Below, piece by piece: positions 9,267 through 9,743 of a DNA stretch of 13,591 bases. This DNA is from a virus: IMG/VR virus record IMGVR_UViG_3300024262_005390. The stretch is one strand, 5' to 3'. Made by a program: the position numbers and the translations under genes. The notes beneath the pieces are model-generated. The model was not told where the DNA came from. It saw only the letters and a program-made list of their open reading frames with translations, and made no database searches. Each line of letters begins with the position of its first letter. Position 1 is the stretch's first letter.

Positions 9267-9743
9267 ATGATCAAATTCATAACATATGATAAGTATGACG
9301 AAAATAAGACCACACCTATTACATCATTCTCAGGTAAATGGAGCTTTCTGTCCAATTTCTCTACTTCACCTGTAATGTATGATAAAGAATTATATCCTAC
9401 AGTGGAACACGCGTTTCAAGCAGCTAAAACATTGAATCTTGATGAACGTCAAAAGATTCAAAAAGCTAAAACACCAGGTGCAGCGAAACGGTTAGGTAGA
9501 GCTGTAAAGATGCGTGATGATTGGAATAAAATTAAAATAGGTGTTATGGACGAATTACTTAGACAAAAATTTGATCGTAATAAAGAAGATTATTTTAAGC
9601 TTGTCCATACTCGTAATCGAGAGTTAATAGAGGGTAATACCTGGGGTGATACATTCTGGGGACAAGTGAATGGCAAAGGCTCTAATAACCTTGGCCTGCT
9701 TATAATGCGCATTCGCAATGAAGCGTTTTGGCAAGCGATATAA
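9267..9743 (+). CDS. NADAR-domain protein (YbiA/DUF1768 family; ADP-ribose-processing N-glycosidase fold)
   Basis: Blocks FLSNFSTSPV, YPTVEHAFQAAK, KTPGAAKRLGR, WNKIK..VMDELLRQKF, NTWGDTFWGQVNGKGSNNLGLLIMRIR align with E. coli YbiA (FSNFAAWP.., WPTSEHYFQAQKF, SSPMVAARMGR, ..WGDGGHGKGKNRLGYLLMELR; recalled from memory). TAAAGGAAAT RBS. Confidence 0.85.
   Translation: MIKFITYDKYDENKTTPITSFSGKWSFLSNFSTSPVMYDKELYPTVEHAFQAAKTLNLDERQKIQKAKTPGAAKRLGRAVKMRDDWNKIKIGVMDELLRQKFDRNKEDYFKLVHTRNRELIEGNTWGDTFWGQVNGKGSNNLGLLIMRIRNEAFWQAI

Follow-up and report, generated by a model that had tools for sequence, protein, structure and literature searches.

Does a NADAR gene carried by an uncultured phage encode an eraser of the ADP-ribose marks that DarT-type toxins place on DNA, or a housekeeping N-glycosidase of the YbiA type? 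The question is raised by a gene for a 158-aa protein at positions 9267..9743 (+ strand) of a 13,591-nucleotide stretch of viral DNA (IMG/VR record IMGVR_UViG_3300024262_005390), which was analysed over its whole length and is referred to here as the window. A first-pass annotation had described the product as a YbiA-like NADAR protein and as candidate counter-defence against DarT-type ADP-ribosylation. The gene is a genuine, intact phage NADAR gene, and most likely it specifies a stand-alone NADAR-family ADP-ribosyl glycohydrolase that is predicted to be catalytically competent. Erasure of DarT1-type guanine-ADP-ribose from phage DNA by this orphan enzyme is, in our judgement, its probable function.

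Identity and clade of the NADAR gene

The open reading frame (ORF) extends from ATG to TAA exactly across 9267..9743. Its start codon lies 8 nt beyond the stop codon (9257-9259) of the preceding small membrane ORF and is immediately preceded by a purine-rich, Shine-Dalgarno-like AAGGAAA (9259..9265, + strand). As the N-terminal extension of the protein is shared with its closest homologues in the alignment (P0003 and P0004), the annotated start is supported. The NADAR/DUF1768 signature read from the sequence in the first-pass annotation was borne out by the profile search proposed there: the match to Pfam NADAR (PF08719; E=1.6e-24) reaches 87.5 bits, where the curated cutoff is 35.1, and spans residues 25-152, corresponding to nearly the full profile (positions 10-161 of 163). 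Phage protein families placed the product in phrog_1017 (E=1.4e-42), homologues of the protein are present in 472 phage records, and a sequence search of the PDB retrieved E. coli YbiA (2b3w, E=6e-21), the best match among solved structures, and the NADAR of Phytophthora nicotianae (Pn; 8bau, E=3e-6). An AlphaFold2 model built from a 68-sequence alignment (mean predicted local distance difference test score (pLDDT) 90.7, predicted template modelling score 0.86) displays the YbiA fold, a helical core with two small beta sheets alongside, and a Foldseek search with this model agrees with the NADAR assignment; residues 1-17 were modelled with low confidence.

Within the family, BLASTP aligned the window NADAR with AdfN^Bas32 at 49% identity over 140 aa (E=1e-41), compared with 34-37% identity to E. 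coli YbiA and ~20% to T4 gp30.3. AdfN^Bas32, the closest characterised relative, is the product of bas32_0066 of Escherichia phage IrisVonRoten (Bas32), where we located the NADAR gene. We built two clade-specific hidden Markov models (HMMs), one from the 114 nearest neighbours of the window protein, with the protein itself and AdfN^Bas32 excluded, and one from the 97 nearest neighbours of YbiA. The first model scores the window NADAR at 220.6 bits, AdfN^Bas32 at 174.3 and YbiA at 124.3, whereas the second scores YbiA at 282.9, the window NADAR at 92.1 and AdfN^Bas32 at 80.1. A neighbour-joining tree separates the window NADAR, AdfN^Bas32 and 22 neighbours from YbiA and its own 22 neighbours in 200 out of 200 bootstraps. 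At 14 clade-diagnostic columns the window protein follows the Bas32 clade. Position 49 is Ala, as opposed to Tyr in YbiA, and the last signature motif has the form EGNTWGD, as in AdfN^Bas32 and its clade, where YbiA reads E-HTEND. Position 74 is Lys in the window protein, in AdfN^Bas32 and in all 22 clade members sampled, whereas YbiA and 21 of the 22 members of its clade have Ala. Together with the clade HMMs, Lys74 and the EGNTWGD motif provide useful markers for sorting NADARs. Net charge and isoelectric point, tried as a proxy for DNA binding, do not separate the two clades. The DS-32 anti-phage model NF053876 scores the window protein at 52.6 bits, far below its cutoff of 240.

An Asgard-archaeal NADAR (P0021) is found among the homologues, which fits the published likeness of AdfN^Bas32 to archaeal NADARs (PMC11825919). 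By these sequence comparisons the window NADAR is a member of an AdfN^Bas32-like clade and no housekeeping YbiA orthologue. The description "YbiA-like" is imprecise, because the protein falls outside the housekeeping YbiA clade in both the HMM and the bootstrap comparison.

Active site, predicted reaction and alternatives

To the family-level assignment the active site adds residue-level evidence. Twelve ADP-ribose-contact positions were mapped from the Pn NADAR co-crystal, ten of which are identical in the window protein (E47, K54, K74, G77, R78, D85, W86, E122, D128 and W131). Of the remaining two, Pn R93 is conservatively replaced by K90, and Pn Tyr84, which stacks on the adenine, corresponds to Arg83, a residue likewise found in AdfN^Bas32 and YbiA. 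Compared with AdfN^Bas32, the window NADAR is identical at all twelve positions. The catalytic Glu and Lys lie in the motif E47-H-A-F-Q-A-A-K54 (9405..9428, + strand), which supplies the distal-ribose Glu and the phosphate/adenine Lys. They correspond to E43/K50 of Pn NADAR, E88/K95 of E. coli C7 DarG1 and E36/K43 of T4 AdfN, are invariant in two of our alignments (A1 and A3), and owe their assigned roles to earlier work (PMC11543638, PMC11825919). The loop A73-K74-R-L-G77-R78 (9483..9500, + strand) carries G77 and R78, which contact adenine and pyrophosphate, and the signature L-I-E122-G-N-T-W-G-D128-T-F-W131-G (9624..9662, + strand) carries D128 and W131, which contact the pyrophosphate, together with the subfamily-defining E122. 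At the latter position Glu defines the YbiA/NADAR-type families, while DarG1 has Asp and T4-type proteins have His. The comparison with characterised NADARs called for in the first-pass annotation therefore finds the catalytic residues intact.

Lys74 deserves separate mention. It corresponds to Pn K75 and to K115 of C7 DarG1, a residue that is needed against DarT1 in vivo and dispensable in vitro (PMC11543638). The presence of Lys or Ala at this position appears to track which NADARs protect in vivo. From this pattern we infer a putative link, which would offer a cheaply testable hypothesis for why only some NADARs protect cells against DarT1.

Both the NADAR mechanism and the counter-defence role of phage NADARs were published between 2023 and 2025. 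DarG1 NADARs strip ADP-ribose from the guanine N2 on which DarT1 places it, with E88, K95 and D171 as key residues (PMC11543638). Glu-type NADARs also remove cytidine-ADP-ribose, an activity absent from those of DarG1 and T4 (PMC12945103). NADARs that work in vitro can fall short of protection in vivo (Cihlova 2024): despite in vitro activity, neither E. coli YbiA nor T4 gp30.3 rescues cells from DarT1 (PMC11125620). During T-even infection AdfN^T4 (gp30.3) counters DarTG1, and DarT1 is neutralised, with no need for infection, by two unrelated phage NADARs, AdfN^Bas32 of T5-like phages and AdfN^Bas60. AdfN^Bas32 has this effect in E. coli and also lets three phages form plaques again on hosts with DarTG1 (PMC11825919). 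Since every NADAR family tested to date hydrolyses guanine-ADP-ribose in vitro (PMC11125620, PMC12945103), the same activity is a strong prediction for the window enzyme.

In the mechanism that we propose, the ADP-ribose moiety would be bound in the conserved helical cleft, with its phosphates contacted by K54, R78, W86, K90, D128 and W131 and its distal ribose flanked by E47 and E122. Hydrolysis would then cut the N-glycosidic bond that joins ribose C1'' to the exocyclic N2 of a guanine in DNA. Marks set on phage DNA by DarT1-type or other guanine-directed ADP-ribosyltransferases (ARTs) could in this way be erased and replication proceed, an orphan-antitoxin strategy by analogy to the one shown for AdfN^Bas32. 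The gene has the setting of an orphan: its context is that of a phage, no cognate DarT or ART gene adjoins it within the 13.6 kb of genome analysed, and no ART domain was detected in any of the window ORFs. Fold, clade membership and residue conservation are observed; the substrate, the timing of action and the biological target, which would be DarT1 in the host, we infer.

Several points weigh against this assignment. An identity of 49% does not guarantee the same specificity in vivo, and the tree that separates the two clades samples only the nearest neighbours of each reference, leaving intermediate sequences out. The window protein also passes, narrowly, the NCBIfam model of riboflavin N-glycosidases (TIGR02464; 78.5 bits, cutoff 73.7). 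At its N terminus it has no counterpart of the DNA-binding extension seen in DarG1, and the model is of low confidence over residues 1-17. Moreover, members of its clade occur in varied contexts, including RNA-repair-like ones, which are compatible with other ADP-ribose substrates.

A rather unlikely alternative, which overlaps the DarT1 assignment and is not exclusive of it, is an eraser of wider scope that reverses ADP-ribosylation by transferases besides DarT1. Cytidine- or guanine-ADP-ribose made by pierisin/ScARP- or YarT-like enzymes, RNA ADP-ribosylated by defence systems, or products of an ART whose gene lies in another part of the phage genome could all serve as substrates. The cytidine activity of Glu-type NADARs fits such a role (PMC12945103), as does a YbiA-family NADAR that acts as antitoxin of YarT, a non-DarT toxin, and Johannesman et al. 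argue that NADARs act whichever toxin made the mark. Against it, the ORF adjoining the gene (see below) resembles a SAM lyase and not an ART, no ART domain was detected in the window ORFs, as noted, and anti-DarT1 action is the one phenotype known in vivo for the Bas32-type clade.

Degradation of low-molecular-weight ADP-ribose compounds (diffusible immune signals, toxins or by-products of RNA repair), instead of DNA adducts, appears unlikely. Such a function was argued from gene context by Iyer et al., and contextual support of a weak kind comes from clade member P0073, which is encoded near a T4-type RNA ligase, DUF4326 and PTH2. Likewise, the phrog_4848 family of the adjoining ORF occurs in phage KB57 among NAMPT, Prs, RNA ligase and Sir2 genes. 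No NADAR has, however, been shown to act on signals of this type, all experiments on phage NADARs concern adducts on DNA or RNA bases, and no gene for an RNA ligase or for a Macro, SLOG or Nudix protein is present in the window.

We consider it improbable that the enzyme is a housekeeping N-glycosidase of riboflavin intermediates (the products of GTP cyclohydrolase II or RibD), perhaps used for damage control in infection. This reading draws on the marginal TIGR02464 score, on E. coli YbiA being the best structural match, and on the Joint Genome Institute annotations, in which many homologues are called "ribA/ribD-fused uncharacterized protein" or "N-glycosidase YbiA". TIGR02464, however, scores YbiA at 169.5 bits and the validated AdfN^Bas32 at 66.3, on either side of its cutoff, and thus straddles the clade boundary and separates the clades poorly. 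The clade HMMs, the bootstraps and the residues at positions 74 and 49 and in the EGNTWGD motif all set the window protein apart from YbiA. Neither a rib gene (ribA or ribD) nor a rib fusion is present among the window ORFs. A connection to GTP-derived metabolism through the QueE-like gene of the window, and hence to 7-deazaguanine, was considered and found unsupported: the list of QueE matches includes no T5-like phage with AdfN, and the phage distributions differ (NADAR in Streptomyces, Vibrio, Salmonella and Escherichia phages; QueE in Vibrio, Mycobacterium, Campylobacter and Cellulophaga phages). Automated pipelines would name the gene riboflavin N-glycosidase, given its TIGR02464 score, or "swarming motility protein"; a clade-aware test provides a better name.

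Finally, a non-catalytic inhibitor that binds ADP-ribose or a defence protein, for which the catalysis-independent action of a phage NADAR against Retron-Eco1 (Carabias 2024, as cited in PMC11825919) gives a precedent, is highly improbable given the full conservation of catalytic residues, and so is a moron affecting a host phenotype such as swarming, a reading that we rejected since the phage DLP4 "YbiA" that complements swarming of E. coli ybiA (PMC6469090) represents another type of NADAR, with 26% identity to the window protein and membership of neither clade (53 bits with the query-clade HMM, 64 with the YbiA-clade HMM).

The assignment as an anti-DarT1 NADAR of the AdfN^Bas32 type is thus supported as a candidate, in line with the proposal of the first-pass annotation. 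Given the homologues in hundreds of phage records and the published mechanism, the gene would be a credible yet unsurprising addition to a known counter-defence family. If the assignment is true, validated anti-DarT1 enzymes of the AdfN^Bas32 type extend from coliphages to an uncultured low-GC lineage near the largest phages, which would support guanine ADP-ribosylation as a widespread pressure on phages.

Gene neighbourhood and phage lineage

On the + strand the NADAR gene follows, in order, a Major Vault Protein (MVP)-like gene, an SPFH/Band-7 gene, a lipoprotein-like ORF and a small membrane ORF. The lipoprotein and small membrane protein neighbours named in the first-pass annotation are both present: the lipoprotein-like ORF spans 8358-9011 (+) and shows both a signal peptide and a lipobox-like motif, LSSGC, and the small membrane ORF spans 9011-9259 (+). 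The AT-rich block in which the gene was said to sit did not hold up, as the NADAR gene has a GC fraction of 0.363 and the window a mean of 0.352; only a 131-aa ORF (0.275) and the neighbouring lipoprotein-like gene (0.284) are AT-richer. Since no terminator-like site was detected on the + strand between 6422 and 10086, the NADAR gene is probably co-transcribed with its neighbours.

Downstream, and outside the NADAR enzyme, an ORF of the phrog_4848 family (9748..10086, +; E=1.6e-33, labelled "unknown function" in PHROG) starts 5 nt after the NADAR stop codon, or overlaps the NADAR gene by 26 nt if an alternative ATG at 9718 is used. Its structural model (pLDDT 96.7) has the PII-like fold of S-adenosylmethionine (SAM) lyases and SAM-AMP lyases: the top ten Foldseek matches in the PDB are all either the phage SAM lyase Svi3-3 or type III CRISPR SAM-AMP lyases (template modelling scores up to 0.69, probability 1.00). 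In structure, just two residues are conserved across SAM lyase and SAM-AMP lyase, the catalytic Glu and Gln, and these are matched by Glu55 and Gln92, which are 37 residues apart and near-invariant in the phrog_4848 family, as is Cys40. The family is widespread: it occurs in 193 phage records, and an exhaustive HMMER search (E<=0.001) retrieved 640 representative proteins. The NADAR gene would accordingly adjoin a second candidate counter-defence enzyme, and this modelled SAM-lyase fold lends support to the counter-defence conclusion of the first-pass annotation on evidence other than its own.

A toxin-antitoxin pair, in which the adjoining ORF would be a small ART as YarT is to its YbiA-type antitoxin, was ruled out, as the model resembles a SAM lyase and the overlap of the two genes depends on an uncertain start. 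It is tempting, though doubtful, to picture the two genes as a co-transcribed two-enzyme counter-defence cassette of a huge-phage relative. The NADAR would erase guanine- and cytidine-ADP-ribose from DNA or RNA whatever the transferase, its neighbour would destroy SAM or SAM-AMP, and together they could disarm DarTG1-like systems, pierisin/YarT-like ARTs, restriction-modification or BREX systems, or type III CRISPR-CorA.

In Klebsiella phage KB57 (region 1-10309) the phrog_4848 homologue KB57_101 lies in a region with many genes of NAD+/ADP-ribose and RNA-repair functions, encoding NAMPT, ribose-phosphate pyrophosphokinase, a phosphoesterase, RNA ligase, Sir2 and DNA ligase, and no NADAR gene was found within 5 kb of it. 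A conserved pairing of phosphoesterase and phrog_4848 genes was considered and dropped: the calcineurin-like metallophosphoesterase of the window (11565-12212, -) shows no significant similarity or detectable kinship to KB57_100, the phosphoesterase that precedes KB57_101.

With regard to the lineage of the phage, a nucleotide search of 8300-10200 against phage genomes yielded no match. Three further metagenome contigs encode an identical NADAR and represent the same phage (99.98-100% nucleotide identity), which renders them uninformative with respect to purifying selection. The 820-aa MVP-like protein (3922-6384, +) matches the Major Vault Protein shoulder (E=1.2e-25) and the vault repeat (E=1.6e-10) and has no PHROG match. 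In the phage collection its only matches are LR756500-LR756503, uncultured phages of 462 kb and 735 kb (43-44% identity over 98% of the length). The gene has a good promoter-like site (3842-3869) and a strong terminator (6392-6411). One of these genomes, LR756501.1 (735 kb), encodes a NADAR of the same clade (29072-29551, -) that is 44% identical to the window protein, has Lys at the K74 position and scores 175.8 bits with the query-clade HMM versus 86.2 with the YbiA-clade HMM; its gene lies ~7 kb from the MVP-like gene, on the opposite strand. The exclusive MVP-like matches and this nearby NADAR suggest that the window phage is a relative of huge phages. A full-text literature search turned up no publication that connects vault proteins with huge or jumbo phages.

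Following the MVP-like gene, whose shoulder domain is SPFH-related, the SPFH/Band-7 gene (6964-8286, +; 440 aa, phrog_11908) encodes a protein with a membrane anchor at the N terminus and a long, coiled-coil-like tail, and has the highest GC fraction in the window (0.437). Just downstream of the NADAR block lies a ferredoxin-reductase-type FAD/NAD(P) oxidoreductase gene (10609-11298, -). A small HNH endonuclease ORF (11270-11578, +; 86 or 102 aa depending on the caller) lies between this gene and that of the metallophosphoesterase and overlaps the start of the former and the end of the latter, an arrangement typical of homing endonuclease insertion. A QueE-like radical SAM protein (12602-13396, -) matches phrog_2076 (E=5.5e-44) and no Pfam family at E<=0.01. 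In place of the canonical C-x3-C-x2-C spacing, the cysteines near its N terminus follow C-x3-C-x16-C. Its best phage relatives come from Cellulophaga, Chryseobacterium and haloarchaeal viruses. The gene hints at 7-deazaguanine DNA modification, and the host is possibly a member of the Bacteroidota. One metagenome contig (L006), otherwise 99.98% identical to the window, carries ~495 extra bases at its positions 5762-6255, including a called 179-aa ORF, relative to window positions ~12520-12600, in the interval that separates the 102-aa ORF from the QueE-like gene. The difference is an insertion/deletion polymorphism and possibly reflects a mobile element.

Comparison with characterised NADARs

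Among characterised systems, DarG1 (BC4488-type; G. lovleyi, 8bat, and E. coli C7) was not matched by the window protein in sequence or profile searches. It has Asp in the last strand (C7 D171), where the window NADAR has E122, the equivalent of Pn E125, possesses an N-terminal DNA-binding extension (beta1-beta2-alpha1) that the window protein lacks, and is encoded beside DarT1, which the window NADAR is not. AdfN^T4 (gp30.3) resembles the window protein as an orphan phage NADAR, in its case one that counters DarTG1, and in the spacing of the catalytic residues (E36/K43 and E47/K54). At ~20% identity it is distant, though, and its subfamily-defining position is occupied by His, not Glu. It depends on a factor specific to T-even phages and, in cells that are not infected, fails to neutralise DarT1.

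E. coli YbiA (2b3w), the riboflavin-intermediate N-glycosidase, shares the subfamily Glu and the catalytic Glu/Lys pair with the window NADAR. It hydrolyses guanine- and cytidine-ADP-ribose in vitro and gives no protection from DarT1 in vivo. It differs from the window protein in that K74 is replaced by Ala, 2 aa are inserted after the GR motif and the signature reads E-HTEND; its gene lies on the chromosome and shares an operon under LexA control with dinG and ybiB. Pn NADAR (8bau, in complex with ADP-ribose), which hydrolyses guanine-ADP-ribose, has ligand contacts that correspond nearly one for one to those of the window protein, K75 to K74 included. This eukaryotic protein is ~32-34% identical to the window NADAR, it bears N-terminal and internal extensions, and its Tyr84 stands in place of Arg83.

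AdfN^Bas32, widespread in the T5-like Markadamsvirinae, comes closest. The window NADAR has 17 extra N-terminal residues, the low-confidence part of the model, lacks a 4-aa insertion preceding the catalytic Glu, and stems from an unrelated, uncultured low-GC phage with other neighbouring genes, its activity being a prediction; like AdfN^Bas32, it is an orphan phage NADAR of ~150 aa belonging to the same clade.

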